Assembly (NCBI GenBank): GCA_020343435.1
Contig: CP070794.1
Span: 397,209-461,208 of the forward strand
DNA: 64,000 nucleotides
Reading direction: 5' to 3'
DNA from: an archaeon
Lineage (GTDB): Archaea > Nanobdellota > Nanobdellia > Pacearchaeales > UBA284
Positions 3,286-55,672 of this stretch are shown here, one piece after another (positions within the stretch are counted from its first letter, which is position 1; the number at the start of each line of letters is the position of its first letter). The position numbers were made by a program, and so were the translations under genes. Under the pieces are notes generated by a model. It had not been told where the DNA came from. It ran no database searches and was given only the letters and a program-made list of their open reading frames with translations.

Positions 3286-4187
3286 ATATAAGAATATTTT
3301 TTTGGCAGAATTCTTTTTCCATACATCAACATCCCCTTAATATCAAACTCATTAAACAAAGAGTAAGAAACAACTGGAGCAATACAACCACAAGTTGAAC
3401 AATCCATACCAGGGCCCATAACACAAGGGATTTTAGTCTCTCCTTCTGGATCAAAACTTAAGAATTTAGAAGGTTGCATGAAAAAACATTTTTTATAGAA
3501 CCTTTTATCCTTGAAAATACTTATTATGTTTGGAGTTAACAAAACAACATCCTTATCTTTTTTAAGAACCTCTCTTAACTTATTAATGGTCCAGTCTAAT
3601 TTTTTTCCTTCTAAATATAAAGGATCTTTAGGTCCTTTAGGTTTTACATATGTGCTAAAAGTGATTCCATCAACATCAGCTTCTCTTGTTATTTTAATCA
3701 TATCATCAATATATTTGTAATTGGCAGTTGAAAGAGTTGGTGTTATGATTACTCTCTTATCTCCTTTAATATTTTTCATGATTTTATCAAAACATTTTGC
3801 TCCTCTGATCTTCTCATGTATTTTTTTAGGTCCATCTACACTAACAAAAATTCTACATTGTACTTCTTCAGGAATTTTTCTTGTACCATTTGTAACAATA
3901 GTGATTGTTTTGAACATTTTGTAAGCTTTTTTAATTAAATTCATTCTTAAGGTTGGTTCTCCACCTGTTAAATGAGCTGAAAGTGCTCCTTTTTTGATGT
4001 GTTTTCTCCAAAGAGAAATCCATTGTTTATCTGTCAATTCTCTACTCTCTCTAGGATAAGTTTCCCTATAGCAATGATGGCATCTTAGATTACATTTGTT
4101 AGTAATTTCATAATTAATATCTGGAGGAAAATCTTTAGGACGAGTTATCTCTCTCCACATTAATCTGAATAATCTTATTAATTGCAT
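3282..4187 (-). CDS. Radical SAM protein with a C-terminal Cys cluster
   Basis: CNLRCHHCY (CxxxCxxC) near the N-terminus, a GGEP SAM-binding motif, and C-terminal CVMGPGMDCSTCGC. Confidence 0.8.
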   Translation of the reverse strand: MQLIRLFRLMWREITRPKDFPPDINYEITNKCNLRCHHCYRETYPRESRELTDKQWISLWRKHIKKGALSAHLTGGEPTLRMNLIKKAYKMFKTITIVTNGTRKIPEEVQCRIFVSVDGPKKIHEKIRGAKCFDKIMKNIKGDKRVIITPTLSTANYKYIDDMIKITREADVDGITFSTYVKPKGPKDPLYLEGKKLDWTINKLREVLKKDKDVVLLTPNIISIFKDKRFYKKCFFMQPSKFLSFDPEGETKIPCVMGPGMDCSTCGCIAPVVSYSLFNEFDIKGMLMYGKRILPKKYSYI

Positions 4188-4225
4188 GCTTAGAATAAAT
4201 TAATTCCCTTTAAGAACTTTTGGAG

Positions 4226-5749: not shown

Positions 5750-5847
5750 AAAGAATCAACAGATTCTTTCTTTTTAAATTTAACTACTGGAGAGTTAATA
5801 AATTCTTTAAGGTTAATTTTATAATATAAAATCTGTTTAAGTTATTA

Positions 5848-7377
5848 ATGAAAAAGAGGTTTATTAAAGATAGACTTAATCATCAATGTTCTATTGGAAA
5901 ACAAGGCAAATGCTGTAAGAACTGTTTATTAGGACCATGTATTGTTCTAAATCGCCAAGATAAAGGTGCTTGCGGAGCTTCGCAAGATTTAGTTGTTTCA
6001 AGGAATATTTTAAGATTTACAGCAGGAGGAGCATCAGCTCATTGTGGTCATGCTTATCATACATTAAAGTATTTGAAAAAAGATTATCCTTTTGATTATA
6101 TTAAGAAAAAAGCTCCAAGTTATTTGTATAACTTATGGAAAAAACATGGATTCTTACCAAAAGCAAAACTAGAACATTTCAAAGATATTTCAGAAGCTCT
6201 ACATACAACAACAATGGGAACAAATGCAGATTATAAAGATGTAATAAAATGGTGTTTAAGATTAGGAATTTTAGATGGATATTATGGATTGTATTTAGCA
6301 ACAGAATTAGAAGACCAGGTTTTTGGAAAACCTGAAGTCAGGGTTGGAGAATTAAATCTTGGAGTTATCCAACCAAATAAAATAAATATAGCTGTTCATG
6401 GACATGAACCTATTTTAGCTGAAGCATTAATTAAAGAAGTAAGAAAAAAAGAGAATTTAGATATCAATTTAATTGGAGTTTGCTGCACAGGACAAGCTGT
6501 TTTAGCAAGACACGGGATTCCAATGGCTGCTAATTTTCTTTTACAAGAAAATGTGATTGCAACTGGAATGATTGAGGCAATGGTTGTTGATGTTCAGTGT
6601 ATTATGCCAAGTATCTCTGATTTAGCTGAATGCTATCATACAAAGATCATTACAACAAATGAATTATGTAAAATGCCTAATGCTGTTCATATGCCTATAA
6701 CAAATAAAAAAGAAGCTGAAGAAGTTGCTCATAAAATAATTAGTATGGCAAGAACAATGGGAAGGCATAGACTAAAAAATAAAAGGATTAGAGAAAATAA
6801 AAAAGTTGCTGTTGTTGGGTTTCATGAAAGAAATCTTCCTTATTCTCCAAAAGAGATTGCAGATAAGATTAGAAAAGCTCAATTAAAAGGAGTAATTGCT
6901 GTTGTTGGATGTGATAATATCAGAGTTAAAGAGGATTGGGTTAAGTTATATAAAGAATTAAGTAAAGATTATTTATTTTTAACTACTGGTTGTATTGGTT
7001 TTAAACTTGCTAATGCAGGATTATTAGATGGAAAGAATTTCTATCATCTTGGATCTTGTGTAAACAATGCAAGAATTGCTGAAGTCTTTAGATTAATTGC
7101 TAAAGCTGCTAAAAAACAGATTCATGACATGCCTTTTTTAATTTCTTGTCCACAACCCATATCTGAAAAAGCTATTTCAATAGGAATGTTTTTTGCTGCT
7201 TTGGGAGTTGATGTTCATTTTGGTTATAACTTCTTATTATCAAGTGATATGCATATTGCAAAATATTTAGAAGAGGCTTTGAAAAAGACTTTCAAAAGCA
7301 AAGTATTCTTAGAGATGAAACCTAAACAATTTAAAAGAAGATTGCAAAAAGAAGGATTATCCACAATATATAAATAA
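5848..7377 (+). CDS. Compact CooS-like protein (Ni-CODH/prismane family)
   Basis: N-terminal CSIGKQGKCCKNCLLGPC and GACGASQDLVVSRNILRFTAGGASAHCGH. Also AVHGHEP, GVCCTGQ, DVQCIMPS, VVGCDN and LGSCVNNARI, in the same order as CooS cluster-ligand motifs. Only 509 aa. Confidence 0.7.
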   Translation: MKKRFIKDRLNHQCSIGKQGKCCKNCLLGPCIVLNRQDKGACGASQDLVVSRNILRFTAGGASAHCGHAYHTLKYLKKDYPFDYIKKKAPSYLYNLWKKHGFLPKAKLEHFKDISEALHTTTMGTNADYKDVIKWCLRLGILDGYYGLYLATELEDQVFGKPEVRVGELNLGVIQPNKINIAVHGHEPILAEALIKEVRKKENLDINLIGVCCTGQAVLARHGIPMAANFLLQENVIATGMIEAMVVDVQCIMPSISDLAECYHTKIITTNELCKMPNAVHMPITNKKEAEEVAHKIISMARTMGRHRLKNKRIRENKKVAVVGFHERNLPYSPKEIADKIRKAQLKGVIAVVGCDNIRVKEDWVKLYKELSKDYLFLTTGCIGFKLANAGLLDGKNFYHLGSCVNNARIAEVFRLIAKAAKKQIHDMPFLISCPQPISEKAISIGMFFAALGVDVHFGYNFLLSSDMHIAKYLEEALKKTFKSKVFLEMKPKQFKRRLQKEGLSTIYK

Positions 7378-7448
7378 TGTAACCACTTTGAGATAGTTAC
7401 AAATAGAAAGATTTATAAAGTATAGATGTTATAGGTATATAGGTTAAA

Positions 7449-7913
7449 ATGGTTAAAGGAGATGTATTTGGTTTTGGAGCATTAACTTCTAGTTATGCAA
7501 GAGTAGATAAAAGAGCAATTAAAACGCTCTCTAAACATTTGGGTGGTTTAAAACAAAAAGTAACTGATGCTGGATTAGATCTTATTGCAAGTGATTTTGA
7601 TTCAGATAAAGCTGAAGAAATGGATGCTCTAATAAGAGGGGCAATGGAGACATGTAGAACTTACTACAAAGAAAGTTTGCCTTCTCCTGGTTCAACCACC
7701 CCAACCACCATGACAGAGTCAGAAATTAGGGGGGTTAGTGATCGTGCTCTTCAATGGTTTGATAGAAAACTAACTGCGCTTAATGTTATAAGGAGACCCA
7801 AAACAAAAGAATGGATCCCCCATCCAATGAATAATAATCAAGAATATTCCTGGGCCCAAGCAGTGAATACTGGAGATGATTTTTACAGAAGGGAATACTT
7901 GAAACTTAGATAA
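7449..7913 (+). CDS. Hypothetical protein (orphan)
   Basis: 154-aa ORF with no recognisable motif and somewhat elevated G+C. Confidence 0.45.
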   Translation: MVKGDVFGFGALTSSYARVDKRAIKTLSKHLGGLKQKVTDAGLDLIASDFDSDKAEEMDALIRGAMETCRTYYKESLPSPGSTTPTTMTESEIRGVSDRALQWFDRKLTALNVIRRPKTKEWIPHPMNNNQEYSWAQAVNTGDDFYRREYLKLR

Positions 7914-7943
7914 TTTTATAATGTCTTTTTTTCTTAATTAGTT

Positions 7944-8819
7944 ATGATATATGATGTAATTATTATTGGTAGTGGGGCTGCAGCACTAACTGCTGCTATT
8001 TATTCTGTAAGATACAAATTAAATACTTTAGTCATTGGAAAAGAAATTGGCGGAAAGATGATCTGGACACCAACTATTGAAAATTATCCTGGATTTGGTA
8101 AAATAAGTGGTATCGAACTTTCAAAAAAAATGGAAGATCAAGTAAAAAAATTAGGTGTTAAAGTTTTGAAAGAAGAAGTTAAAATGCTTTGCAGAGAAAA
8201 AGAATTATTGATTATAAAAACTGAAAAACAAAGATATGAAGCAAAATCTGTTATAGTTGCTTGGGGAACTCAAAAAAGAAAATTGGATGTTGAGAATGAA
8301 GATAAGTATATAGGTAAAGGAATTGCATATTGTGCAACTTGTGATGCTCCCTTATTTAGAAATAAAGATGTAGTGGTTGTTGGTGGTGGAAATTCTGCAG
8401 CTATAGCAGTAGATCTCTTAAAAAAGTATGCTAAAAAAATTTACATGGTTTACCTAGATCTTTTTATGGATCCTTCTGAACTTGAAAAGATAAAAAAAGA
8501 TGTTGAAATAATTCAGGGAACTATTAAAAAAATAGGTGGGGATAAGTTTGTAAAATCTGTTACTTTGAATTCTGGAAGAAAATTAGATGTTCAAGGAATT
8601 TTTGTTGAAATTGGAGATCTTCCTAATGAAATTCCTTGTGAGAAGATTAAGATTAAAACAAATAAACAAGGATATATTTTAACTGATCAAAATATGAAAA
8701 CTTCTGTTAACGGAATTTTTGCAATAGGAGATTGCATTTCCAAACCTTTGAAACAAATTGTGACTGCTGCAAGTGATGGCGCAACAGCAGCTCATTCTGC
8801 TTACAAATTCTTGAAATAG
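7944..8819 (+). CDS. trxB: Thioredoxin-reductase-like flavoprotein (low-Mr TrxR fold)
   Basis: FAD motif IIIGSGAAALTAAIY, redox CATC (AYCATCDAPLF), second dinucleotide motif VVGGGNSA, and GDC near the C-terminus. The HRRxxxR NADPH motif is absent (YLDLFMD in its place). Confidence 0.8.
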   Translation: MIYDVIIIGSGAAALTAAIYSVRYKLNTLVIGKEIGGKMIWTPTIENYPGFGKISGIELSKKMEDQVKKLGVKVLKEEVKMLCREKELLIIKTEKQRYEAKSVIVAWGTQKRKLDVENEDKYIGKGIAYCATCDAPLFRNKDVVVVGGGNSAAIAVDLLKKYAKKIYMVYLDLFMDPSELEKIKKDVEIIQGTIKKIGGDKFVKSVTLNSGRKLDVQGIFVEIGDLPNEIPCEKIKIKTNKQGYILTDQNMKTSVNGIFAIGDCISKPLKQIVTAASDGATAAHSAYKFLK

Positions 8820-10729: not shown

Positions 10730-12103
10730 TCAAATTGCTTTTCCATCACAGATAAACCGGTATTTCCTATTCCAGTCTTCCTTTGTCATCTTTTGCATAT
10801 CTTTTGCGTACTTATCAAGGAATTTCTTTAACTTAGGATCATTAACTATTGTTGCTGCTCCTGGATGAGAAGGTTTTGCTTTTCCTTTCTTAACAGCATT
10901 TCTAAGAACTTCTGGATTATCAATAATGCAACAAGGAGTTAACCAGTTTTTAATCTTTTTCTGTCCTTTTCTAAGTTCTTCAAAGAATTTAGATTGAATA
11001 GCTTTCTTTAATGTTGTAGTTTTTATGTTATCTACGTAAAAGTGTACAAAAACACAAGGTTCTATATTTCCATGAGCATTAACATGCATGTAACCTCCTC
11101 CAAGAGTTTTATCTTGTGTTGCTCCTGCAATACATCCATGTACAAAAGGACCATCATTCCAGAAATCGCCAATAAAGATTTTAACATTGGGGTTGCTTCT
11201 CCATTTATGAACTTTTTTTCTTAAAACAGTTCTCTGTTGGGGAGTTTGCATAAGTTTTGTATTTGGTTTTAATCCAATTGGGACATAAGTAAAGAACCAT
11301 CCAAATAAACATCCTTGTTTTTGATAAAACTGTAAGAACTTATCTGTAGATATTACATCTGAGTTATATCTTGTTGGAACTGCTGAGAAACCAAAAGCGC
11401 AACCATGTTTTCTTAAGTTAGCCATTGCTCTTATTACTCTATCATAAACTCCTTTTCCTCTTCTTTGATCTGTTTCTTTTCTAAATCCTTCAACAGAGAT
11501 TGCTGGAACAAGATTTCCTAGCTTTGCCATTTTTTTAGCAACACTGTCTGTTATCATGGTTCCGTTTGTATAAATCTGGAAGTAAATATCAGGATATTCT
11601 TTTGCCATTCTGAATAAATGTGGCCAGACAAATGGTTCTCCACCAGAGATTGTTAGAAAAGTTAATCCAAATTCTCTAGCTTCATCTAATGTTTTCTTTA
11701 CAGTTTCATAAGGCATATCATCTTTTACAGTATATTCTCCAGCATAACAACCAGTACATCTTAGATTACATCTCATTGTTGGACTAACTACAAAAATAGA
11801 TGGGGGATAAATTCCATACTTTTTATGATAAGCATTTCTTCTCTCATAACCCTGGATTAAATAACCAATTATAAAGTTCTTAGTTAGTTTTTTTCTAACT
11901 TCTGGAGCTAGTTTTCCTAGTCTACTCATTACTGGTTTAAAAATAGTATCTGTTTTTAGGTTCTCTATAACTTTTTTTCTTTCAGAATCCTTAGTAAAGA
12001 ATTTAAGAAGATTGGCGATTTTATCAATATTCTTTTCAGATTTAGTCATGTATTTGACAACTTGATTCAATGCAGCCCCCTTAATACTTCCAAAGATTCC
12101 CAT
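10730..12103 (-). CDS. Radical SAM protein (457 aa), function unknown
   Basis: TMRCNLRCTGCYAGEY, a GGEPF motif, and additional dispersed Cys (HGCIAG, EPCVFVH, TPCCIIDNP). Confidence 0.8.
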   Translation of the reverse strand: MGIFGSIKGAALNQVVKYMTKSEKNIDKIANLLKFFTKDSERKKVIENLKTDTIFKPVMSRLGKLAPEVRKKLTKNFIIGYLIQGYERRNAYHKKYGIYPPSIFVVSPTMRCNLRCTGCYAGEYTVKDDMPYETVKKTLDEAREFGLTFLTISGGEPFVWPHLFRMAKEYPDIYFQIYTNGTMITDSVAKKMAKLGNLVPAISVEGFRKETDQRRGKGVYDRVIRAMANLRKHGCAFGFSAVPTRYNSDVISTDKFLQFYQKQGCLFGWFFTYVPIGLKPNTKLMQTPQQRTVLRKKVHKWRSNPNVKIFIGDFWNDGPFVHGCIAGATQDKTLGGGYMHVNAHGNIEPCVFVHFYVDNIKTTTLKKAIQSKFFEELRKGQKKIKNWLTPCCIIDNPEVLRNAVKKGKAKPSHPGAATIVNDPKLKKFLDKYAKDMQKMTKEDWNRKYRFICDGKAI

Positions 12104-12149
12104 TGTTTAAAGAGAGTTTTTTCCTTTAAAAACCTTATGGTAATAAAAA

Positions 12150-13268
12150 TTACCTTCGCTGAATGATAAAACTATTCACCAATTTTCTCGCTTTTTCTCG
12201 ATTTTTTTGGTGTTGTTTTAAGAATGTATTTATCTTGTTTATTAGGATTTTCTTGAGTTCTGATGTTAACATTTCTCCAGATCTGTATTTTCGTTCAATT
12301 TCAGCTAGTTTTTTATCATCTGGTTCAAAGAACATTTTCAAGTATTGGAATGAAACATCTATATCTGGATTTCCTCCTTTTTTCCTATGTTCTGATGTTG
12401 ATTCCTTTCCTCCTGAGAAAGCATATTTGTTAATTTTTCTTTTTACTTCTTCTGGAGAATCTGTCATAGCAATAAAAGAGCTTGGGTCACTTGAGGACAT
12501 TTTCCCGCCTCCTTTTAGCCCAGGTATGAATAAGTGATAGGTTGATGCTATCGGGATAAACTTATGATCCTTGTTTCTATTAGCCATCCCTCTTGCTAAT
12601 CTTATATGTGGATCTTGATCTACGCCAACTGGAATAAATGTTGGGATTATTCCTTCAAATTCTGGGAGTTGTGGGTGATACATGTCTGATGCTTGTAGTA
12701 AAGAAGCATTCATTTTTCCAGGAGTGATATTTCCATAAACTCCTTTAAACTCATTAAATGTTGCATATCTTGAAAAATTTGAAGCTAAAGTGTAAAAGGC
12801 ATTTGATTTTTTTGCATCTTTAGATCTTTCAGATTGAAAATAAAAATCAACATTCTTTGGAGATAATCCTAGAGCAATATAATTAATGAGATATTGTTCT
12901 ATGGCAACTTTCTTTAATTCTGCTAAAGATTTTTGTCTTGCATTGTATGCCTCAAGATCTGCAACAGCGATATAAATTTTAGCCCCCAGTTTTTGATAAA
13001 AAATAAATTGTTGAGCGAGAATCATGTGGCCCAAATGAAATTTTCCAGAGGGCATTAATCCAGTCATCATAACAAACTTCTTTTTGTTTTTTATTGTATC
13101 TAGGATTATGTTGAAATCCCTATGCGCAAAGATGATCTTCCTTCTAAATAAAAGATTTCTATTGAAAAATTCTGGGAGCTTTCCAAGTGGTTTAATACCA
13201 AATTCTTTTACCAATTTTTTGTAATCTATACATCCCTTAACTTCCCAAGGAGATACTTTGAAACTCAT
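12150..13268 (-). CDS. trpS: Tryptophanyl-tRNA synthetase (archaeal/eukaryal type)
   Basis: N-terminal VSPWEV..IDYKKLVKEFG, HIGH-type PSGKFHLGHM, and KMSKS-type KMSSSDP. Confidence 0.8.
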   Translation of the reverse strand: MSFKVSPWEVKGCIDYKKLVKEFGIKPLGKLPEFFNRNLLFRRKIIFAHRDFNIILDTIKNKKKFVMMTGLMPSGKFHLGHMILAQQFIFYQKLGAKIYIAVADLEAYNARQKSLAELKKVAIEQYLINYIALGLSPKNVDFYFQSERSKDAKKSNAFYTLASNFSRYATFNEFKGVYGNITPGKMNASLLQASDMYHPQLPEFEGIIPTFIPVGVDQDPHIRLARGMANRNKDHKFIPIASTYHLFIPGLKGGGKMSSSDPSSFIAMTDSPEEVKRKINKYAFSGGKESTSEHRKKGGNPDIDVSFQYLKMFFEPDDKKLAEIERKYRSGEMLTSELKKILINKINTFLKQHQKNREKARKLVNSFIIQRR

Positions 13269-13303
13269 AGTTAAAAGAAGAGAAAAGATTTTATAAAGGT
13301 TTC

Positions 13304-14344
13304 TTGATTATTTTTTCTATGAAACATAATGTTAAAGTAACTGTAATAATTCTTGTCATGTTTTTGATAAGCATGTTTATTGGTTTAGCTGTTATTGGTT
13401 CTTATGATAACTTTTTTGGAAAAAGTGCTCAAGAAGCTGCTAAAGAAAAAAATGTTTCTGTAGAAAAACCAGAATTAAGTTTTGTTGTAGAAACTGTTCC
13501 AGAACCTATTGAGTTCAAGAGGACGATTGATGTGGTTAGTGTTATAGTTAGTATTTTAATTGCAATAGCTATAGCTGTGGGATTATTCTTTCTGCTTACT
13601 AGATTGAGAATTAATGTTGTTTTGAAAGGTTGGTTTACTGTTATTGTGTTTATCTGTCTTGTTATTGCATTAACAATGATTCTTTATTCTGTTATGGGTG
13701 GACCGAAAAGTCTGTTTACTCTTTTTGGGAGGACTGTGGCTTTAGGAGAGGTAATTGCCATTCCTTTGGCAGCTTTTTTAACTTATTTTAAGATTAAAAA
13801 AAGAGATATGATTGCACATAACCTTTCTGAATTACTGATTTATCCTGGAATTGCAGTAATATTTGTTCCAATCCTAAATGTTTTAGCTGCTGCTATTCTG
13901 TTAATATTAATTTCAGTTTATGATATGATTGCTGTATGGAAAACCAAACATATGCAAGCTTTAGCAAAGTATCAAATTACTCATTTAAAGATCTTTTCAG
14001 GATTCTTTTTACCTTATGCTGGTAAAAAAGAAAAAGCTAAGATAAAAAGAATAAGGAGTAAAGCAAAAGCTATGAAATCTAAAAAGAAAAGAGAGATATT
14101 TTTGAAAAAGCAAAAAGTTAATCTCAATGTTGCAGCACTTGGTGGGGGGGATGTTGCATTTCCATTAATATTTATTGGAACTATATTAATAACTCATGGA
14201 TTTTTACCAGCATTAACAGTTGTTTTAACAACTCTCCTTGCTTTGGGATTATTATTATTCTTTGCAAAGAAAGGTAAGTTCTATCCAGCAATGCCATTCT
14301 TATCAGCTGGTTGTTTCTTAGGATTACTACTAATTTTAATTTAG
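13304..14344 (+). CDS. Presenilin/signal-peptide-peptidase homologue (A22 intramembrane aspartyl protease)
   Basis: Polytopic protein carrying YD (SVYDMIAVW), GxGD (LGGGDVAFP) and PAL (FLPALTVV) in order. The true start is probably the ATG at 13319. Confidence 0.75.
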   Translation: MIIFSMKHNVKVTVIILVMFLISMFIGLAVIGSYDNFFGKSAQEAAKEKNVSVEKPELSFVVETVPEPIEFKRTIDVVSVIVSILIAIAIAVGLFFLLTRLRINVVLKGWFTVIVFICLVIALTMILYSVMGGPKSLFTLFGRTVALGEVIAIPLAAFLTYFKIKKRDMIAHNLSELLIYPGIAVIFVPILNVLAAAILLILISVYDMIAVWKTKHMQALAKYQITHLKIFSGFFLPYAGKKEKAKIKRIRSKAKAMKSKKKREIFLKKQKVNLNVAALGGGDVAFPLIFIGTILITHGFLPALTVVLTTLLALGLLLFFAKKGKFYPAMPFLSAGCFLGLLLILI

Positions 14345-18469: not shown

Positions 18470-18522
18470 GTTTTTTATAAGATACTCTAACTTTTAACTT
18501 TTTCTAGAATAAAATAGATAAA

Positions 18523-18645
18523 TCCCAGCGGCCGGACTCGAACCGGCATCCTCACGGGTTCTGCCGCGCGTAAGCGAACGCATGCTCGAGCCTTACGCAT
18601 AAGCATAGGCTACAGCCGTGCGCTCCACCGTTGAGCTACACTGGG
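18523..18645 (-). tRNA. tRNA-Tyr (GTA) with a 51-nt intron at the canonical 37/38 position
   Basis: Reverse complement: acceptor CCCAGTG/CGCTGGG with C1:G72, anticodon stem CACGG/CCGTG, loop CTGTAG|intron|C, T arm GCCGG-TTCGAGT-CCGGC. Confidence 0.85.
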
Positions 18646-18678
18646 ATAGAAATACTAAGAATTTGTATTTTTAAAGGT

Positions 18679-21782: not shown

Positions 21783-21842
21783 TTTAACAATAGATCCAGA
21801 AAAAGATGGTTTTTAAATATTTATATTCGGAAATATATAAAA

Positions 21843-21854
21843 ATGCTCCCGCCG
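21843..21854 (+). repeat. Distal att-like direct repeat (copy of the tRNA-Glu 3' end)
   Basis: ATGCTCCCGCCG is identical to 28960-28971. It is a G+C-rich 12-mer inside a 276-nt AT-rich non-coding spacer. Confidence 0.65.
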
Positions 21855-21870
21855 TAAGCGGAACAAGAAT

Positions 21871-21881
21871 GACAGTGCTCT
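21871..21881 (+). repeat. Left inverted repeat just inside the element end
   Basis: GACAGTGCTCT is the exact reverse complement of 28937-28947. Confidence 0.6.
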
Positions 21882-22058
21882 CACTGTTTAATTTTTATTA
21901 TGTCTGTTACGACTATTTATCGAGGAGATTGAACTTTATATATTTTATGTTTTTGTATAAGAAAAAAGATTTTTTCAACATAGAAAAGATTATAAAGGCT
22001 TAAATTATTAGTTTTTTGGGGTGGTGGTCACCAGAAACCTTATTCTGAGATTAACAAA

Positions 22059-22367
22059 ATGACCTGGTTTACAAAACAATTAAGTGATGGAAGATTTTTT
22101 CATGCTGGAAGAGTCTATAGAGAAATCCCACTTCCAAAAGAAGATTCTTTACCAGAAGAGTATAGAGGCAAAATTGTAGATGTTATGTATGGCTCTATCA
22201 CTGGAACTGAAAGAGAGCATTCTGGAGGCACTCAAGCAATGATTGTTGAATCAGAAGGAATGGAAAGATTGGTTTTTGAAAAAGGAAAATGGAATGGTGT
22301 TGATCCTAACCTTAAACCAGTGTTTACTATTGCCGATAGAATAGCTAATGAAGCTGGCGGTTTCTAA
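22059..22367 (+). CDS. Hypothetical protein (element cargo)
   Basis: 102-aa ORF with elevated G+C and no recognisable motif. Confidence 0.45.
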   Translation: MTWFTKQLSDGRFFHAGRVYREIPLPKEDSLPEEYRGKIVDVMYGSITGTEREHSGGTQAMIVESEGMERLVFEKGKWNGVDPNLKPVFTIADRIANEAGGF

Positions 22368-22438
22368 TTTTCAATTTCATTATATCTATTTGCATTATAT
22401 TAAAGACAAGCTAAGAAATAGTAAATTCTAAATAATAT

Positions 22439-24046
22439 TTATTGTTTTTTGTTTTTTTCTGGATCATAGTTAATTATTTTAAAAACAAAAGCCCCATTAG
22501 CATGAGAGATATCCGCTACATTATAATCCCCCGATATTAAAACACATCCATTATTTTTTGAAATCATATCATACAATTTTTTGTCAGCATCAAAAGGATC
22601 TGTTATCTCATAATCTTTTGTTGTTATCTTTATTTTTCCTGATTGTTGAAACATCTTTAATTTTTCTAATTCTTTTTGTGCACCTCTTTTCTGAGATAAT
22701 CGAATTGTTTCAATTTCATCCAAAATTTTAAATGGTTGAATTACACAACAACCCTCAAATATTGGTTTTTCTGAATTAAAATCTTTACTTAATATGCCTG
22801 CAACATAGGCGTTGGTATCACATATGATGTGGGTAAATTTTTTTCTTAAACAATCCTTTTCTATTATCTTATTACATTTAGAACAATGATAATTAATCTT
22901 TTTCTTTTGTGGATTATAATATATAAGGATTTTGCTTATTTCTTCTTTGCAGTTGGGACATAAGAATTTTAGTTCTATTTGTTTTTTTGGATATCTTTGT
23001 TCTATTTCTTTAACATTACTCCATTTTTTTCTTACAAAATCTGGGAACTCTAAAGAAGGGTGTGATTTTCTGAAGACCCTTAACCATTTTCCGGTTATGT
23101 CATTACTTGCCCCCTTTCCAAAACTAATACTTTTTTTATTATCATATAATGTATTTAATCTATTTAATTCTTCCATTTTTGAAAGTCTTATTTGTCTTGC
23201 AACAATAGAGGCCAGCTTTACGGCAGTAACATTTTCATCCATTTTACTTTTACAAATAAATTCAATCTTATTTTTCTTCAAATTTTCCAAGTATTTTTGC
23301 AATTTATCTCTGATATTATAATTATCAATTACCAATAGAAAATTCTGATTTACAACATTTGAATATTTTCTTATAAGATTAATATATTTATTATCCATCA
23401 AACGATTTAAATTAAAAGGAAAATTAGTGATTTCTAAAGAAGAGATAATTTCATAATAATACTTTATTTTGTATTCTCGTAATAAACTACAATAATAATT
23501 TAATTCTTTTAAACTTAGGGTTTTTATATCTCTTTTTAAATCTTTAAATAGAAGTAGTTTGTCTTTAGGTAGCAATACCGAACCAAAAACCATCGGACCA
23601 ATACATTCTCCTTTTCCAGCTTCATCAAATCCGATAATGCATTCTTTCAATTCATATAATTTTGATTCATCAATTTCTATTGCTTTTGCCTTATCTCTTC
23701 TCTTAATAAATGTTAAATTAATTGAATTTTTTAAAAAAGAACTTATTTTCTCAAAAAAATCCCCTTCTTTTCCTTGTAATAGGCATTTCCCAGTACCATA
23801 AAAAATTAGATTTAGGGAATCCTTATTATTGGATAGTATTAATTTTAAGATTATATTTTGTTTTTCATCTTTACTTTCAACAATTATCCTAAATTTGTTT
23901 CTAATTAATTCTTTTATTTTCTTAATTTCACTTAGATTAAACTGGAATGTTTCTGAACTCATTTTGATTAACCAAGAATAAACATCAGCAGCACTGATGG
24001 CTTCATATCCTTCAGCAACCTCTGCGATTGAACCCTTGCGGGGCAT
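22439..24046 (-). CDS. RNase HIII-like domain / zinc ribbon / PIN-domain fusion protein
   Basis: An N-terminal RNase HIII-type segment (LIFYGTGKCLLQGKEG) is followed by a type-2 RNase H core (GFDEAGKGECIGPMVFG ... DENVTAVKLASIVAR). Then come CPNC..17 aa..CSKC and a PIN-like C-terminus (IICDTNAYV, LDEIE, DADKKL, ISGDYNVADISHANGAFV). Confidence 0.6.
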   Translation of the reverse strand: MPRKGSIAEVAEGYEAISAADVYSWLIKMSSETFQFNLSEIKKIKELIRNKFRIIVESKDEKQNIILKLILSNNKDSLNLIFYGTGKCLLQGKEGDFFEKISSFLKNSINLTFIKRRDKAKAIEIDESKLYELKECIIGFDEAGKGECIGPMVFGSVLLPKDKLLLFKDLKRDIKTLSLKELNYYCSLLREYKIKYYYEIISSLEITNFPFNLNRLMDNKYINLIRKYSNVVNQNFLLVIDNYNIRDKLQKYLENLKKNKIEFICKSKMDENVTAVKLASIVARQIRLSKMEELNRLNTLYDNKKSISFGKGASNDITGKWLRVFRKSHPSLEFPDFVRKKWSNVKEIEQRYPKKQIELKFLCPNCKEEISKILIYYNPQKKKINYHCSKCNKIIEKDCLRKKFTHIICDTNAYVAGILSKDFNSEKPIFEGCCVIQPFKILDEIETIRLSQKRGAQKELEKLKMFQQSGKIKITTKDYEITDPFDADKKLYDMISKNNGCVLISGDYNVADISHANGAFVFKIINYDPEKNKKQ

Positions 24047-24258
24047 CCGGCATATCTGCCATCATACCACACTGCTATTCTTATTAATATTCTTATTCTT
24101 TTAAATGTTTAGTTATTTAATTATCCAAATACTTTAATTAAATTTGAAAAGACAGATATAAATTCTTTTCTATTCTAAAAATTGTAACAAAAGAAATATA
24201 TTCAAAATATGCTGGCTTCTTCTGACTTTTTTATTAAAATTTAATAATATTTATATAT

Positions 24259-24615
24259 TTGAATCAACTTGTCTTCATTATGAAAAAACATGATTGGTTT
24301 GAAGATTTAAAAGGAACTATAAGAAAATTCAAGAATATTGACAATGCTATTGCATGCTTTAAGTTCAAATATGAAAGAGAAATGCAATTGCCACAATGGG
24401 TTTTAGGGATTGGTATTGCTATGCTTCTATCCTCAAATATTTCAAGTATCATTCAATCTAATTCAGATTTTTTAAAGATAACTGGAATAGTGGGATATGT
24501 TGTATCATTGGTTCTTTTTTTGGTTGGTATCATCTTGTTGATTGTTTTATCAAATCGCCAAAAAAAAGCTATGAGTTATTTATATTTAGAAAAAGATAAG
24601 AAAAATAAAAAATGA
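24259..24615 (+). CDS. Small membrane protein (element cargo)
   Basis: Two predicted TM helices. The probable true start is the ATG at 24280. The gene overlaps the next gene by 4 nt. Confidence 0.5.
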   Translation: MNQLVFIMKKHDWFEDLKGTIRKFKNIDNAIACFKFKYEREMQLPQWVLGIGIAMLLSSNISSIIQSNSDFLKITGIVGYVVSLVLFLVGIILLIVLSNRQKKAMSYLYLEKDKKNKK

Positions 24616-25325
24616 ACTTCAAAGAGATTAAGATAATAATTGGATTTGTAATACTTTTTCTCCTTCTATTTAGTATCCCAAGCATCTTCGCTTTCCGAGA
24701 CCCCCTCTTAGTAAAATTGATTAACAACAGCGAATGCAGAGATGCCCTTAATATTGCTTCAGAGAATGATATATTAGAAATAAGTCTTCCAAAAAATTTC
24801 AATTGCAAGGATGTAACAATTGAGATGAATTTTAGTGGAAATATATGTCGTTGTGATGGTCTTAGAGACAATTATTTTCATGATTCTGTTGGCGAAGAAA
24901 AATATAATTATACTAACAATCTTTATTTCTGTTTATTAACTTTTAAAAATGCATATGATAGTTGTTGTTGCCCCCATTATTCTGGGAAAAAAAATTGTAT
25001 AGAAACAGATTTGATCAATAATAAGTTTGACATAAAGATAGGTTATTCTGAGAGTTATGGTCAACCTTATTTGTTTAATAAAACTCTTAAAGTAATACAT
25101 CAAGAAGATTTGGAAAAAGAATGCAAAATCTGGAATTTCGAGAAAACTGGAATTAATGTTGGTATCCCTTTAATTATTATTTCTGGGATTTGTTCGATTA
25201 TTGGTTTTTATCTTTCTAAAAAAGGAAAGACACAAAAACTAAAAAAGATAGGTACAACAATGGCTATATTGGGAGTTATAATAACTATAATTTTAGCGGT
25301 ATTGAATAGATTTAAAATTTTGTAA
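24612..25325 (+). CDS. Cys-rich membrane-anchored exposed protein (element cargo)
   Basis: N-terminal signal/TM, a Cys-rich ectodomain with N-x-S/T sequons, and two C-terminal TM helices. Confidence 0.5.
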   Translation: MNFKEIKIIIGFVILFLLLFSIPSIFAFRDPLLVKLINNSECRDALNIASENDILEISLPKNFNCKDVTIEMNFSGNICRCDGLRDNYFHDSVGEEKYNYTNNLYFCLLTFKNAYDSCCCPHYSGKKNCIETDLINNKFDIKIGYSESYGQPYLFNKTLKVIHQEDLEKECKIWNFEKTGINVGIPLIIISGICSIIGFYLSKKGKTQKLKKIGTTMAILGVIITIILAVLNRFKIL

Positions 25326-25350
25326 ATTCTGACTTAGTCCACAAAAAACA

Positions 25351-25746
25351 TTATACTATTTTTTCTTTATAGGTTATGGAACTACAATTAGGACATTTTC
25401 TCAATTTATTTAAAGAATCTTGTAAAGCATTTTTATTGCGATTAGTTTGCATACCTGCACCAGCAGCAAGCCAACTTCCCGCTAACATACCAAAACCAGT
25501 AGCAACTTGATAAGATCTATTTTTCTTTAATTCTCTTTCAAGTTCCTTCTCTTTTAATACAGAAGAATACCAAACTTTCCCACAGCGATTGCATTTTCTT
25601 TTATATTCCTTATTATCAATTTTTTGTTTTTTGCCATACTGTTTCTTGCACTTAATACTGCAAAATCTTTTATCTTTGGTTCTATAAACTAAACCTGTCT
25701 TAAGATTTCCAAGTTTTTTATTGCAGTTCGGACAAAAAGATACCAT
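25351..25746 (-). CDS. Double zinc-ribbon protein with a central Gly-zipper hydrophobic segment (element cargo)
   Basis: CPNC..CSIKC, CNRCGKVW and CPNC motifs, plus GFGMLAGSWLAAGAGM in the middle. Confidence 0.5.
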   Translation of the reverse strand: MVSFCPNCNKKLGNLKTGLVYRTKDKRFCSIKCKKQYGKKQKIDNKEYKRKCNRCGKVWYSSVLKEKELERELKKNRSYQVATGFGMLAGSWLAAGAGMQTNRNKNALQDSLNKLRKCPNCSSITYKEKIV

Positions 25747-25748
25747 TG

Positions 25749-25813
25749 TATATTTTTGTAGATATGTAGTTTTATAGTAATGGCTTATATATAAAGATTT
25801 CTACAAAAATATA
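25749..25813. promoter_or_regulatory. Divergent promoter region bracketed by a 14-bp inverted repeat
   Basis: TATATTTTTGTAGA (25749-25762) and TCTACAAAAATATA (25800-25813) flank central TATA-like boxes between the zinc-ribbon gene and the RHH gene. Confidence 0.4.
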
Positions 25814-25821
25814 TCTCTACA

Positions 25822-25959
25822 ATGGCAAAACCAAAAAGACAAGTAAGTTTCTTTATTGAAACAGATTTATGGAAAAAGTTTTCTAAAAAATGTATAGATA
25901 AGGACAAGTCAAAGACAGAAGCTCTTGTAGAATTAATCAAAGGATTCTTAGGAGACTAA
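25822..25959 (+). CDS. Small ribbon-helix-helix (CopG-like) protein, 45 aa
   Basis: MAKPKRQVSFFIETDLWKKFSKKCIDKDKSKTEALVELIKGFLGD shows a beta-strand/helix/helix pattern. It is below the length cut-off of the ORF track. Confidence 0.45.
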   Translation: MAKPKRQVSFFIETDLWKKFSKKCIDKDKSKTEALVELIKGFLGD

Positions 25960-26225
25960 GCATAAGTATATACTCATGCAGAAAAAACTACTGTTGTATT
26001 ACCATTACAAAAGTCATAAGGAAGCAAATTCTATAACTTAAGGACTTTTGGCATGTTTCTATTAGTTTTTTGCTGAATAAATTTTTTTAGAAAATCTTAT
26101 AGAAATATGTTTAGTTTCCTATGGATTTTGTCTGTTTTTCTCGAAGCTTGGTAAAAATAATCTTGTCACTAAGTCTAATATTCTTCTTCATGGGGAGCTA
26201 AAAGGGTGGGTGCTCTGAGAGAGAG

Positions 26226-27113
26226 CTATACTTTATTTCCTATGTTCTTAGCTGTTTCTATATCTTGTTTTATTTCTGGTTCTTTGTTTAATGGCGCCGC
26301 CGAATCAAAAAGTTTTATTTCTTTCTCACGCAAAGAAATTATTTTTCTTATTTTATCTTTTGCGTTATACCCTTTTTCTTCCCATTCTGGGTATCCATAA
26401 CTCTGTTCTATCTTCTTATGCTTAATACCTAATTGAATACCTTTGGAAGCAATAACATCCTTTTGTAAAGCATATTCTTGCCAAGGACAAATAGCTACTT
26501 GTTCTGGAATACCTATTTTCAAACCAGGATATCCTATCTCTAATTCTGACTTAAGACTAAAGAATTTCTCATTGTTAATTTGTTCTATTGTAATCGGATC
26601 AAAACCAAATGTTCTAAAGTAAGCAATTAATTTACAACCATTCTTAGTTTTATGAAATTTAAAACTGCCGTCAGGCAAGAAGAAACGAAAAGCATATTTC
26701 CAGCCCCTTGGGCAATAACCAAGAAAGGACTTATCTTTCTCTAATTTCCTTATTAATTTATCTGGGAGATCATTTATTTTAGCTTCATATACAAAAGCAT
26801 GGCCAGATAGAACCAATGGTTTATTTTTTCCTAATTGATACCCTGTGATAAACCTTTCTATTTCTTTTTTTCTGTATGGATTAATTCCATAAAAGTTTAT
26901 TGAGTCTTTTAAAACAAAGATTAATCCTTTCTCTTCTAATCTTTTTATCGCCTTAGAGATGCCTCCAAAAGTGGATTTTGTTCTTCTAAGTAGTTCTTTT
27001 TGATTGAGCAAAGGTCCCTCTTTTACAAGATGGATTAAGATACTTACTTCTAAATGAGACAACGCGACTTTTTCCCAAGAAAATTTACTAATTTTCTTCA
27101 TCTTGTTTTTCAT
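26226..27113 (-). CDS. Winged-helix DNA-binding protein with a large C-terminal domain (element cargo; possible replication or regulatory protein)
   Basis: N-terminal wHTH (LIHLVKEGPLLNQKELLRRTKSTFGGISKAIKRLEEKGLI). The remainder is unrecognised. Confidence 0.55.
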   Translation of the reverse strand: MKNKMKKISKFSWEKVALSHLEVSILIHLVKEGPLLNQKELLRRTKSTFGGISKAIKRLEEKGLIFVLKDSINFYGINPYRKKEIERFITGYQLGKNKPLVLSGHAFVYEAKINDLPDKLIRKLEKDKSFLGYCPRGWKYAFRFFLPDGSFKFHKTKNGCKLIAYFRTFGFDPITIEQINNEKFFSLKSELEIGYPGLKIGIPEQVAICPWQEYALQKDVIASKGIQLGIKHKKIEQSYGYPEWEEKGYNAKDKIRKIISLREKEIKLFDSAAPLNKEPEIKQDIETAKNIGNKV

Positions 27114-27244
27114 TTTTTTTGTTCTCCGAGCTATTAATAAGATTTAATATTATCTCCTCCCACTGCTCTAAAGGTTGTTTTTGTTCCATTATACTTTCCA
27201 AGGAAAAAATATATAAGGACTTAGTGGTAAATTTTACTATAAAA

Positions 27245-27733
27245 ATGAAAATAAATAAAAAAGATTTCGAAGGGAAATTAATTCATCAAGATGAAGAAGG
27301 AATAACTTTTCTTAGTAGGTTTGAAAACAAGGGAAATGGTGTACTTGCACTAAATCTTTATGGATATACTAAATATAAACCGGATAATAATAGAATGACT
27401 TTAAAAACAACTGGGAGTCATCTTAGTCCAGAAAAAAACACTTTAATTCGAGCAAAGATCACAGAGAAAAAATTAACTGGTCTTTGGAATATATCTAATA
27501 AAATGAGACTTAGGGCCGTGGCTAAAGATAGACGATTCAAAGCAAATGAGCTTGCAGCAGTAACTATATTTTCAAATAAAAATGAAATTTCTGTAAAACC
27601 TGCAAATATCCAATTTGATGATCCAGAACCATCAAAAACATATGAAAGTCTCGGACCTTTTCCAGAAGATTGTGGATCTAATAAATCTTGCAATCATTTC
27701 AAGAAAAAAGTTTCTTCTTTAGAAGATCCATAA
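27245..27733 (+). CDS. Hypothetical protein (element cargo)
   Basis: In-frame ATG at 27245, preceded by an A/T-rich TATA-like stretch. The track ORF starts earlier at 27119 in what is probably non-coding sequence. The 3' end overlaps the integrase 3' end by 35 nt. Confidence 0.35.
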   Translation: MKINKKDFEGKLIHQDEEGITFLSRFENKGNGVLALNLYGYTKYKPDNNRMTLKTTGSHLSPEKNTLIRAKITEKKLTGLWNISNKMRLRAVAKDRRFKANELAAVTIFSNKNEISVKPANIQFDDPEPSKTYESLGPFPEDCGSNKSCNHFKKKVSSLEDP

Positions 27734-28874
27734 ACTCCTTATCTTTTACAAGATTATTCATTAGTTCATTTATTTTATTCCTCTCTAAATCTGCTTTAAC
27801 AATTTTATTAGCTTCTTCTTGATCTAAAATCATCCCACACATCTCACAAAAAAGGCTTGTGGGTTTATTTCTATGCTTACATCTCCCGCATTCTTTAATT
27901 TCAATTTTACTTTTTTCTTTTTTCTCTCTTTGTATTCCATTTAATTCTAAAATAGCATCATCAGTATCTCTTTGAGATAAATGAACATAAACAGCAGCCA
28001 TCTTGGAACCTTGTTTCCATCCCATTACTGATTTTAGTTGAGCGTCACTTAAATGTTTAGCAAGATAAGTTGCTCTGGCATGCCTAAAACTGTGAGGATT
28101 TACTCTTTTTCTAACCCCTGCTTTTTCTTTTGCATTCTTTAGAATATTTTTTATTCTCGCATAGGTTATCAAATTATTCTTTTGAGAAAGCCAAACAAAT
28201 GATTCAGGATTGTGATTATCTGGATGACCATCATTTATCCAATTCAAGAGATAACCTGAAGAAGAAATTAATCTAACATATCTGGAACCAGTTTTGCCAA
28301 AAACACTTATTTTTGCTCCAAATTCATCAAAAGAAACATTCTTTATTTTAATTGTTGCTAATTCTCCAATTCTACATCCAGATTCATATAAACAGGCAAT
28401 AAATGCTTTATCTCTACTCTTATTTGAGTTTTGTATTAACTTCAAGATATCTTCTTCATTTAGTAAATCTTCTGGTAGTCTTTGTTTGCCTGAATCGGCA
28501 GTAGTCTTAATCCATCTAACTTCTTCTGGGTAAATATCTTCCGCATTTCTTAACCACTTGTAGAATTTCTTTAATATTATCCTAAAACCCCTTTTAGTAT
28601 TGTAAGCATAATCTTTTTTCTCAATAACTGCTAAAACATGTTGTATATCCTCTTGATTGCATTTATCGAGGTCTCTAACAACAATCTCAGTAATTTTTCT
28701 TAAATCATAAAGATATCTTGCAATTTTAGCCTTTCCTATCCCATCTGCAATACAAGCATCTTGAAATTTCATTAAAATTTCTTTATTTTTCTTAGAAATA
28801 TCACTTTCTTTTATTCTTTTTATTGTTGCTTCTAATTTCTTTGCATAATGATGTATATCTATTGTTTGTTCCAT
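27699..28874 (-). CDS. Tyrosine recombinase/integrase with a C-terminal zinc ribbon
   Basis: Catalytic region with HSFRHARATYLAK and GWKQGSKMAAVYVHLS (R..HxxR..Y pattern). An extra CGRCKH..CEMCG follows. The gene is 86 nt from tRNA-Glu. Confidence 0.85.
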   Translation of the reverse strand: MEQTIDIHHYAKKLEATIKRIKESDISKKNKEILMKFQDACIADGIGKAKIARYLYDLRKITEIVVRDLDKCNQEDIQHVLAVIEKKDYAYNTKRGFRIILKKFYKWLRNAEDIYPEEVRWIKTTADSGKQRLPEDLLNEEDILKLIQNSNKSRDKAFIACLYESGCRIGELATIKIKNVSFDEFGAKISVFGKTGSRYVRLISSSGYLLNWINDGHPDNHNPESFVWLSQKNNLITYARIKNILKNAKEKAGVRKRVNPHSFRHARATYLAKHLSDAQLKSVMGWKQGSKMAAVYVHLSQRDTDDAILELNGIQREKKEKSKIEIKECGRCKHRNKPTSLFCEMCGMILDQEEANKIVKADLERNKINELMNNLVKDKEFMDLLKKKLFS

Positions 28875-28936
28875 ATTGCTCTTAATGAGCAGTGGTTTTA
28901 AACACCAGTGGTAACTTTTACCACAAACTACTCATA

Positions 28937-28947
28937 AGAGCACTGTC
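28937..28947 (+). repeat. Right inverted repeat just inside the element end
   Basis: AGAGCACTGTC is the reverse complement of 21871-21881. Confidence 0.6.
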
Positions 28948-28960
28948 GAATGTATATTCA

Positions 28961-29033
28961 TGCTCCCGCCGGGATTTGAACCCGGGTCACTGCCTCGAGA
29001 GGGCAGTATCCTTGGCCTCTAGACTACAGGAGC
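28961..29033 (-). tRNA. tRNA-Glu (CTC)
   Basis: Reverse complement: GCTCCTG..CGGGAGC-A, anticodon arm CTGCC-CTCTCGA-GGCAG, T arm CCGGG-TTCAAAT-CCCGG. Confidence 0.9.
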
Positions 29034-55383: not shown

Positions 55384-55672
55384 GTAGCTAGGAAGCTGGT
55401 TGTCTGCATTAAGCAGAGGAAGGTCCGCTCACCCCTTGAAAGAGGAAGTGGCTGGTTTTCGAAAGAAAACTTGTCGTGAGGCAAAGCTCTGTCACAGAAA
55501 CGACACAGTCTCTGTGGAGATATGAAACTTGCGTTGATCTACGAAGCAGAGAATTTGATGAAACGGGCAACTCAGTCGGTGCAACTCGTGAAGAGGCTTA
55601 GTAGGATGCCAGTATGGTTGATTTGAAGCTAAAACTTCAAGAGCCAACAAAAAGTGGCCTAATCCTAGCTAC
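55384..55672 (+). ncRNA. rnpB: RNase P RNA
   Basis: A perfect 10-bp terminal helix (GTAGCTAGGA/TCCTAGCTAC). Conserved elements GAGGAAGGTCCGC (compare GAGGAAAGUCC) and CACAGAAA are present. The region is a G+C-rich island of about 290 nt. Confidence 0.85.

Follow-up and report, generated by a model that had tools for sequence, protein, structure and literature searches.

A probable cryptic integrated element at the 3′ end of a tRNA-Glu gene in a small-genome archaeon

Inspection of a 64,000-nucleotide stretch of an archaeal genome (assembly GCA_020343435.1, contig CP070794.1, positions 397,209 to 461,208; hereafter the window) indicates that positions 21843–28971 are, in all likelihood, a 7.1-kb site-specifically integrated element of the cryptic-integrated-element class, lodged at the 3′ end of a tRNA-Glu(CUC) gene (Table 1). 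An element integrated into this tRNA had been proposed in an initial annotation made from the sequence alone. The proposal is supported here by the repeats that bound the element, an intact integrase gene, sister elements in related genomes, conserved arm sequences, and loci in which the site is empty. All coordinates previously assigned to the tRNA, the direct and inverted repeats, the spacer, and the integrase were rechecked to the base and found to be correct. The presence of an archaeal RNase P RNA in the window confirms that the host is an archaeon.

The 12-bp direct repeat at the ends of the element, ATGCTCCCGCCG, has just two exact occurrences in the 64 kb, both on the same strand. The right-hand copy comprises the final 11 nt of tRNA-Glu plus one flanking base, and the tRNA is intact because the element-proximal repeat supplies these final 11 nt. 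The left-hand copy lies within a 276-nt spacer (21783–22058) between ORFs (open reading frames) of 119 and 102 residues. When the 12-mer was sought with one mismatch or fewer in dinucleotide-shuffled sequence, 0 of 100 shuffles contained a match, consistent with a real rather than a chance repeat. On the host side of the distal copy, the sequence GGAGCAT followed by TTTTATAT resembles the native tRNA-Glu trailer, GGAGCAT followed by TTTT, of the relatives with empty sites described below. The GC content of the element is 28.8%, compared with 31–32% in the flanks.

Just inside these repeats lie two inverted arms. The sequence GACAGTGCTCT lies 16 nt inside the left repeat, and its exact reverse complement is found 12 nt inside the right repeat; these are the only exact copies, against an expectation of 0.51 matches at one mismatch or fewer. 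The 11-nt inverted repeats reported at each end are thus exact in the window, and elements with different cores carry the motif at constant spacings from the core. The conserved part across elements is shorter than the window pair, however, and amounts to just 7–8 nt, GTGCTCT(T). These inverted GTGCTCT motifs are putative integrase-binding sites.

A gap of 86 nt separates the start of the integrase gene from the tRNA 3′ end, with the core outside the 391-residue ORF, which is uninterrupted. The protein consists of a SAM-like N-domain, a catalytic domain with the R-K-HxxR-W-Y signature, and a C-terminal CxxC...CxxC zinc ribbon. The catalytic set is complete (R168, K194, H261-x-x-R264, W286, and Y296) and invariant in a 33-sequence alignment, in agreement with the intact tyrosine recombinase described initially, and the zinc-ribbon cysteines are invariant in the family. 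The integrase is of the classical (class II) type and not of the SSV-type “suicidal” kind, the gene being unsplit by integration. In place of the pNOB8-type consensus R...YxxR...Y, the window protein has H261-S-F-R264, and this HxxR box is invariant in the family; the enzyme is therefore Xer-like and classical but not pNOB8-type in the strict sense. Homologues of the integrase number 1771, and neither a second integrase nor a second RNase HII was found in the 64-kb window.

An ordinary chromosomal gene might in principle give a similar picture, if a XerA-type resolvase happened to stand beside a tRNA and the repeats were fortuitous. The best NCBIfam match of the integrase is indeed the XerA model (NF040815), and the GC content of the region differs from that of its flanks by just ∼3 points. 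However, the match scores 122.1 bits, far under the 220-bit equivalog cut-off, the protein carries an extra zinc ribbon, and members of its family adjoin many tRNAs with repeats; the integrase is not the XerA chromosome-dimer resolvase. The shuffling result, the recurrence of the same architecture at other tRNAs with matching repeats, and the existence of relatives without the insert also speak against coincidence, which is so improbable as to be effectively refuted.

Sister elements were found at loci that are referred to here by L numbers. Their integrases are overall 65–70% identical to that of the window. At L001/L002 (70% identical), the integrase gene starts 85 nt after tRNA-Asp(GTC), and a second copy of the tRNA's final 12 nt, CGGTGTGGGCGT, lies 4577 bp downstream. 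At L007–L009 (67% identical), an intron-containing tRNA-Glu(CTC) precedes the integrase gene by 85 nt, the tRNA-Thr/tRNA-Gln/tRNA-Glu synteny matches that of the window, and the 12-nt core, CGGCGGGGGCAT, recurs 7.67 kb downstream. The integrase of L185 (66% identical) lies in PheRS...tRNA-Gln/tRNA-Glu synteny with the same backbone genes, and L188 combines the backbone with HNH and Mrr nucleases. The tRNA-Glu at the integration site also contains an intron in several relatives. L007 contains the tRNA-Glu 3′ end once more, as an 18-nt copy (13605–13622) located 2.2 kb past the first distal repeat, and this copy bounds a tandem island (11436–13622) that encodes an AAA_14/DUF4143 ATPase.

Comparison of these elements reveals a conserved arrangement at both ends. 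The 86-nt stretch between tRNA and integrase gene aligns by eye in five elements and consists of the core, a 15–16-nt spacer, GTGCTCTT, a hairpin, a TTAAAA box, and a TGCTC-N5-GAGCA palindrome at the ATG. The proximal arm GTGCTCT(T) stands 15–16 nt from the core in all five. In the three elements for which both ends are available (the window, L001, and L007), the distal arm AG(A/G)GCAC begins exactly 27 nt before the core and is followed by ATTCT...CTTA. The arm motif persists even after a change of core from the tRNA-Glu to the tRNA-Asp sequence, and the inverted repeat in the window is therefore a version of a conserved arm motif. In the window leader, the palindrome TGCTCNNNNNGAGCA (28877–28891) abuts the integrase start codon and is accompanied by a TATA-like box, TTTAAAA (28894–28903), and a hairpin with a 7-bp stem (28908–28924). 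This leader is presumed from its sequence to be the promoter/operator of the integrase gene, with the palindrome as a putative regulator-binding site.

When one genome per GTDB species was scanned with a profile, 80 integrase-family loci were obtained, most of them from Woese-, Pace-, Aenigm-, Micr-, and Nanoarchaeota and some from Asgard archaea, Bathyarchaeia, and Methanosarcinales. A same-strand tRNA lies within 400 nt upstream of the integrase gene in 39 of the 57 archaeal loci with enough upstream sequence; the targets cover 12 isoacceptor types, and the gaps between tRNA and integrase gene are mostly 40–125 nt. Among 30 testable loci, 14 have an 11–16-nt repeat that ends within 4 nt of the tRNA 3′ end and recurs 2.4–11.2 kb downstream. 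Of 17 repeat-bounded elements, 9 have perfect inverted repeats of 9–13 nt on either side of the core and no farther than 45 nt from it, and repeats of that length arise in at most 5 of 500 shuffles. The gap on the distal side is usually 2–5 nt longer than on the proximal side.

About one-fifth of the best GTDB matches (17 loci among L024–L078) are in metagenome-assembled genomes (MAGs) labeled as bacteria, including Phycisphaerae, Planctomycetes, Victivallales, and others. Such bacterial-labeled loci, exemplified by L039 on a 2.6-Mb Phycisphaerales chromosome, adjoin a tRNA in 1 of 17 cases. They may represent mis-binning or a real inter-domain spread with other target choice.

Relatives of the locus itself were identified using GatE, which is encoded two genes to the left of the element, as the query. 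In L103 and L107 (GatE 56–58% identical), one or two small genes separate tRNA-Glu(CTC) from GatE, which lies 1.0–1.4 kb downstream on the same strand, and neither an integrase nor a tRNA-end repeat was found in that interval. Taking the 7.1 kb out of the window restores the arrangement of these relatives. A third relative, L106, shares a tRNA-Gln/84-residue gene/tRNA-Glu synteny and carries a 4.8-kb integrase-less island (3546–8511) with a 17-nt tRNA-end repeat, whose genes encode a RelE/AbrB pair, a radical SAM protein, an Lrp-type regulator, and a pyridoxal phosphate enzyme; this island looks decayed or trans-mobilized. The empty sites of L103 and L107, the L106 island, and the tandem island of L007 mark this tRNA-Glu as a hotspot at which integration has recurred in the lineage.

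The initial annotation had recognized neither a capsid-like gene nor an ATPase and had not settled the type of element. Scans of the nine element proteins against Pfam, PHROGs, and NCBIfam likewise identified no capsid, packaging, conjugation, or known replication gene, the integrase being the only match among viral functions, and profile searches for replication initiators (rolling-circle replication (RCR) Rep, prim-pol, helicase, and Orc/MCM) gave none. Nothing marks the element as a virus or a conjugative element. As in cryptic integrated elements, it bears an integrase and is bounded by att sites, and signature genes of viruses, casposons, and conjugation were not found in profile scans; the element is read as a member of that class, also describable as a mini genomic island.

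[quoted passage not shown] The 3′ end of the convergent ORF overlaps that of the integrase gene (27699–27733), as it also does in L001, L007, L185, and L188. Its position is kept in all close relatives (140–167 residues) and its sequence barely so: the ORFs of relatives are not significantly similar, and MazE/AbrB-like matches, all sub-threshold, were obtained in two relatives only. The convergent overlap may mean antisense or occlusion regulation of the integrase gene. The genes named initially stand, but the micro-ORF of 37 residues had been overlooked. Alignment with 31–52-residue ORFs of L007, L001, L185, L188, and L101 reveals the motif L-x-(E/Q)-W-E-x-I-I-L, in which the tryptophan is invariant.

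The largest backbone protein after the integrase, of 295 residues, has a MarR-like N-domain, in keeping with the wHTH label given initially, and this wHTH is all that Pfam recognizes in the family. In distant members, His105 and Glu243 are invariant and Glu245 is nearly so. A 5.8-billion-protein index contained 29 homologues, and at E ≤ 1e-3 a profile search of 1.84 billion proteins yielded 62 cluster representatives. In AlphaFold modeling, carried out both for the entire protein and for the C-domain alone (predicted local distance difference test scores of 72–74), the C-domain is depicted as a beta-alpha-beta4-alpha unit. The weak and non-significant Foldseek matches of this domain are to TBP-like folds, namely TBP, the PGM C-domain, RnlA, and the RCR initiator RepDE (4cwc; E 0.18). 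Assignment of the 295-residue protein as a Rep was rejected, Foldseek having returned just wHTH or these non-significant TBP-like matches. An HUH/RCR assignment from the sequences “GHAF” and “EYAIQK” was also rejected, as there was no HUH motif, no invariant tyrosine in distant members, and no profile support. The protein is a candidate regulator or replication initiator.

The gene for the 295-residue protein follows the integrase gene in every context in which the upstream side is present; the contigs of L191 and L192 end before that point. In L099 (8797–10906), a 65% identical homologue accompanies an integrase just 19% identical to that of the window, together with RHS/YD-repeat toxins of 1520 and 1122 residues, and backbone modules have therefore been shuffled between integrase types. 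The slot of the small regulator is filled by a ribbon-helix-helix (RHH)-like protein in the window and L007, and by a small wHTH protein in L001, L185, and L188. The sequence pattern of the 45-residue window protein fits the RHH label given initially; with no Pfam match, the label rests on that pattern.

The remaining genes vary among relatives, in which the cargo is defense- or toxin-like: restriction-modification (R-M) systems, GmrSD, HNH plus Mrr, RHS toxins, and ParE. L101 encodes an Eco57I-type R-M system, a methyltransferase, a PD-(D/E)xK protein, and ParE; L189 and L190 adjoin tRNA-Asp and carry GmrSD; and L191 carries a type I R-M system. A PADLOC scan of the window cargo gave no significant defense-family match. 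Besides the integrase, only the 295-, 45-, and 535-residue proteins have relatives among the loci compared, and L007 shares all three genes with the window (67% identical, 78% identical, and an RNase HII gene 33% identical, respectively). No cargo gene is conserved core, and those with relatives are again found in islands, which bears out the non-housekeeping content noted initially.

The 535-residue cargo protein combines a TBP-like N-domain (as in RnlA or the N terminus of RNase HIII), an RNase HII domain, a zinc ribbon, and a PIN-like C-domain, and scores under the TIGR00729 cut-off. It had been described as an RNase H/PIN fusion. The RNase HII domain is confirmed; the C-terminal domain has no Pfam PIN match, nor any Pfam family at E ≤ 5, yet D-E-D-D residues are invariant at PIN-like spacing in seven homologues, and it is therefore PIN-like by motif only. 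Five homologues of the whole protein were retrieved. One, in L183, stands between a type I R-M system, which it directly follows, and an RNase H gene. Another is in L184 (4358–15073), in which two adjacent tRNA-Ala genes each have a 12-nt copy of the 3′ end downstream (at 12483 and 15062) and the nested islands encode a 396-residue integrase, DpnI, and the homologue. Three of the four contexts (the window, L007, and L184) are thus tRNA-integrated elements, which makes the protein, through guilt by association, a lead toward a conflict-related nuclease.

The other cargo includes a double zinc-ribbon protein of 131 residues and two membrane proteins of 237 and 118 residues, the latter two without homologues among the loci compared. 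Equation of the 131-residue protein with a 126-residue protein of L007 was rejected, the two being unrelated by comparison. The side-by-side position of two membrane proteins and a zinc-ribbon protein would suit a provirus of a small enveloped or spindle-type archaeal virus, with the membrane proteins as virion components, and many archaeal viruses similarly have no recognizable replication gene; a Pox_A14 envelope-protein match was also obtained, although with an E value of 0.027 it is well below threshold. By contrast, neither a capsid, a packaging ATPase, nor a PHROG structural match was found in the element, and the membrane genes are absent from the sisters that share the backbone, L001, L007, and L188 carrying other cargo. 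In the virus collection IMG/VR, single-protein scans with the integrase and the 295-residue protein gave no match and a profile scan gave only relatives of 38% identity or less. A provirus is accordingly a quite improbable explanation. It also counts against a provirus that, at 7.1 kb, the element is smaller than the known spindle viruses or pleolipoviruses.

Integration of the cryptic element can be pictured by the following scheme. A circular form carrying attP would meet the tRNA gene (attB), attP consisting of the core, CGGCGGGAGCAT in the tRNA sense, flanked by inverted GTGCTCT motifs at 16 bp on one side and 12 bp on the other. The element’s own classical (lambda/pNOB8-paradigm) integrase would then exchange strands within the 12-bp identity, duplicating the core and regenerating a complete tRNA. 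The attP junction expected from this scheme is AACTACTCATAAGAGCACTGTCGAATGTATATTC-ATGCTCCCGCCG-TAAGCGGAACAAGAATGACAGTGCTCTCACTG, and the expected empty attB junction is AATATTTATATTCGGAAATATATAAAA-ATGCTCCCGCCG-GGATTTGAACCCGGGTCACTGCC. In the excised circle, the backbone would look after regulation and perhaps replication, and the variable distal half would be cargo benefiting the host-element pair. The element is probably still able to excise.

Several observations weigh against this account. The two inverted arms would sit 40 bp apart in attP, which is too distant for a simple Xer-type core site, and the role of the arms is therefore uncertain. No circular contig was detected by a terminal-overlap test among 188 loci, and no match to the att-arm DNA pattern was obtained in IMG/VR, although these negatives carry little weight. 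The C-domain of the 295-residue protein gave no significant structural match in Foldseek searches of PDB and BFVD (best E ∼2e-3, TM ∼0.3), and a replication protein was not identified. No empty site from the same species was found; in an exact-protein look-up, the identical integrase and 119-residue flank protein are on record only in the source MAG. The relatives L103 and L107, which do have empty sites, are distant, and their sites are therefore empty at the level of the locus, marking a variable hotspot rather than a precise pre-insertion allele.

The lack of a detected circular or empty form among the 188 loci and in IMG/VR would also be explained if the element had integrated once and were now an immobile remnant of which the host keeps the cargo, and the integrase-less L106 island at the orthologous tRNA-Glu shows that decay in place occurs. 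Such a fixed remnant is nevertheless unlikely: the integrase ORF is not truncated and keeps every catalytic and zinc-binding residue, the two 12-nt cores have not diverged from each other, nor have the two 11-nt arms, and the backbone genes are all intact.

Outside the element, the putative 119-residue ORF between it and GatE has no family match and no similarity to the 119–127-residue gene in the same slot of L103 and L107. Its amino acid composition looks atypical for this AT-rich genome. The tRNA-Tyr gene of the window, with its 51-nt intron, was missed by the default tRNA scan and detected by Rfam and by ARAGORN in intron mode.

Table 1. Coordinates of the element, its genes, and neighboring features in the window
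Feature	Position	Strand	Remarks
tRNA-Glu(CUC), integration target (attB)	28961..29033	-	ARAGORN; Rfam tRNA 62.1 bits; anticodon CTC in DNA
att core (12 bp), tRNA-proximal copy	28960..28971		ATGCTCCCGCCG on +; CGGCGGGAGCAT in tRNA sense
att core (12 bp), distal copy	21843..21854		Host side then TTTTATAT
Sub-terminal inverted-repeat arm, integrase-proximal	28937..28947	-	GACAGTGCTCT
Sub-terminal inverted-repeat arm, distal	21871..21881	+	GACAGTGCTCT
Conserved integrase leader	28875..28936	-	By-eye alignment of five elements
Tyrosine integrase, 391 aa	27699..28874	-	PF00589 7.7e-24; PF02899
Convergent ORF, 162 aa	27245..27733	+	162 aa from ATG; 204 aa from upstream TTG at 27119
Conserved micro-ORF, 37 aa	27088..27201	-	Overlaps start of wHTH gene
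wHTH/C-domain backbone protein, 295 aa	26226..27113	-	N-terminal MarR-like winged helix; uncharacterized alpha/beta C-domain
Small regulator, 45 aa, RHH-like	25822..25959	+	78% identical in L007
Double zinc-ribbon protein, 131 aa	25351..25746	-	N- and C-terminal zinc ribbons, Gly-rich hydrophobic middle; cargo, not kept in relatives
Cys-rich membrane protein, 237 aa	24612..25325	+	One N-terminal and two C-terminal hydrophobic segments; cargo
Two-transmembrane-segment protein, 118 aa	24259..24615	+	Cargo
Multidomain nuclease, 535 aa	22439..24046	-	PF01351 3e-20; PF15935; PDB 1uax 2e-14
ORF at distal end, 102 aa	22059..22367	+	Cargo
Flank ORF between element and GatE, 119 aa	21423..21782	-	
tRNA-Tyr(GTA), 51-nt intron	18522..18646	-	Rfam; ARAGORN intron mode
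Archaeal RNase P RNA	55384..55672	+	128 bits

In kind, the element is an ordinary tRNA-integrating island. What is new is an undescribed element family whose backbone protein family and nuclease cargo are uncharacterized, and whose att architecture is, from sequence comparison, unusually well defined. Cataloguing of mobile elements in small-genome (DPANN-type) archaea has barely begun, and genetic tools for these organisms are lacking. The compact integration module (a 391-residue integrase, a 12-bp core, and ∼30-bp arms), with natural specificity variants for tRNA-Glu and tRNA-Asp, could be of use for target-switching studies or integration vectors. Even very small archaeal genomes carry swappable defense/toxin cargo at tRNA hotspots, and two uncharacterized families, the wHTH/C-domain backbone protein and the RNase HII-zinc ribbon-PIN-like nuclease, deserve attention. 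A more far-reaching suggestion, which we offer tentatively, is that the integrase, micro-ORF, and wHTH/C-domain backbone might define an undescribed family of self-maintaining mini-replicons or defense-carrying islands in DPANN and other uncultivated archaea, with the C-domain as a new replication initiator or recombination directionality factor. In the same tentative picture, the 535-residue protein might be a new nuclease directed against mobile genetic elements (MGEs), because its gene was found exclusively on such islands or next to R-M systems.

Among the known systems closest in layout are the cryptic integrated elements defined for Thaumarchaeota (Krupovic et al. 2019, PMC6563490), of which the 2.6-kb NitUzo-E2, with an integrase and a wHTH protein plus a pair of hypothetical proteins, is an example. 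The window element is similarly small, with a tyrosine integrase, a short att duplication, no viral or conjugative hallmark genes, defense genes among the cargo, and a wHTH protein as the sole candidate for replication or regulation. It differs in its small-genome, DPANN-like host, in a five-gene backbone with families of its own, and in the zinc ribbon of its integrase.

The integrase can be compared with the classical archaeal integrases of the XerA/XerC/pNOB8-SNJ2 supergroup (Badel et al. 2021, PMC8371274), for which short att cores of 8–13 bp are documented, including 11 bp for Msmi-Pro1 and 13 bp for SNJ2. It resembles them in its intact gene, attP beside the integrase gene, a tRNA 3′ end as the target, and a SAM-like N-domain joined to PF00589. 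By contrast, its catalytic box is HxxR (Xer-like) where pNOB8-type enzymes have YxxR, its 12-bp core is much shorter than the 40–50-bp pNOB8 sites of Sulfolobales (PMC8371274), and that review makes no mention of an extra C-terminal zinc ribbon of the CxxC...CxxC kind.

Small MGEs have also been described in the Asgard lineage Atabeyarchaeia (Valentin-Alvarado et al. 2024, PMC11529989), such as Yucahu-i with an 11-bp attachment motif, and a relationship of their integrases to the enzymes of Aenigmarchaeota and Bathyarchaeia was reported. These elements, too, encode a tyrosine integrase, range in size from a few to tens of kb, and have an ∼11-bp att motif, HTH proteins, and R-M cargo. Their circles coexist and SF3 helicases are encoded, whereas neither a circle nor a helicase was found for the window element, which targets a tRNA 3′ end. 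Finally, the archaeal host, the unrelated backbone proteins, and the absence of any sign of helper dependence or packaging set the window element apart from the tRNA-integrating defense islands and phage-satellite-like islands of bacteria, with which it nonetheless shares an integrase beside a tRNA, a maintenance module, swappable defense/toxin cargo, and, in L007 and L184, the formation of tandem arrays.

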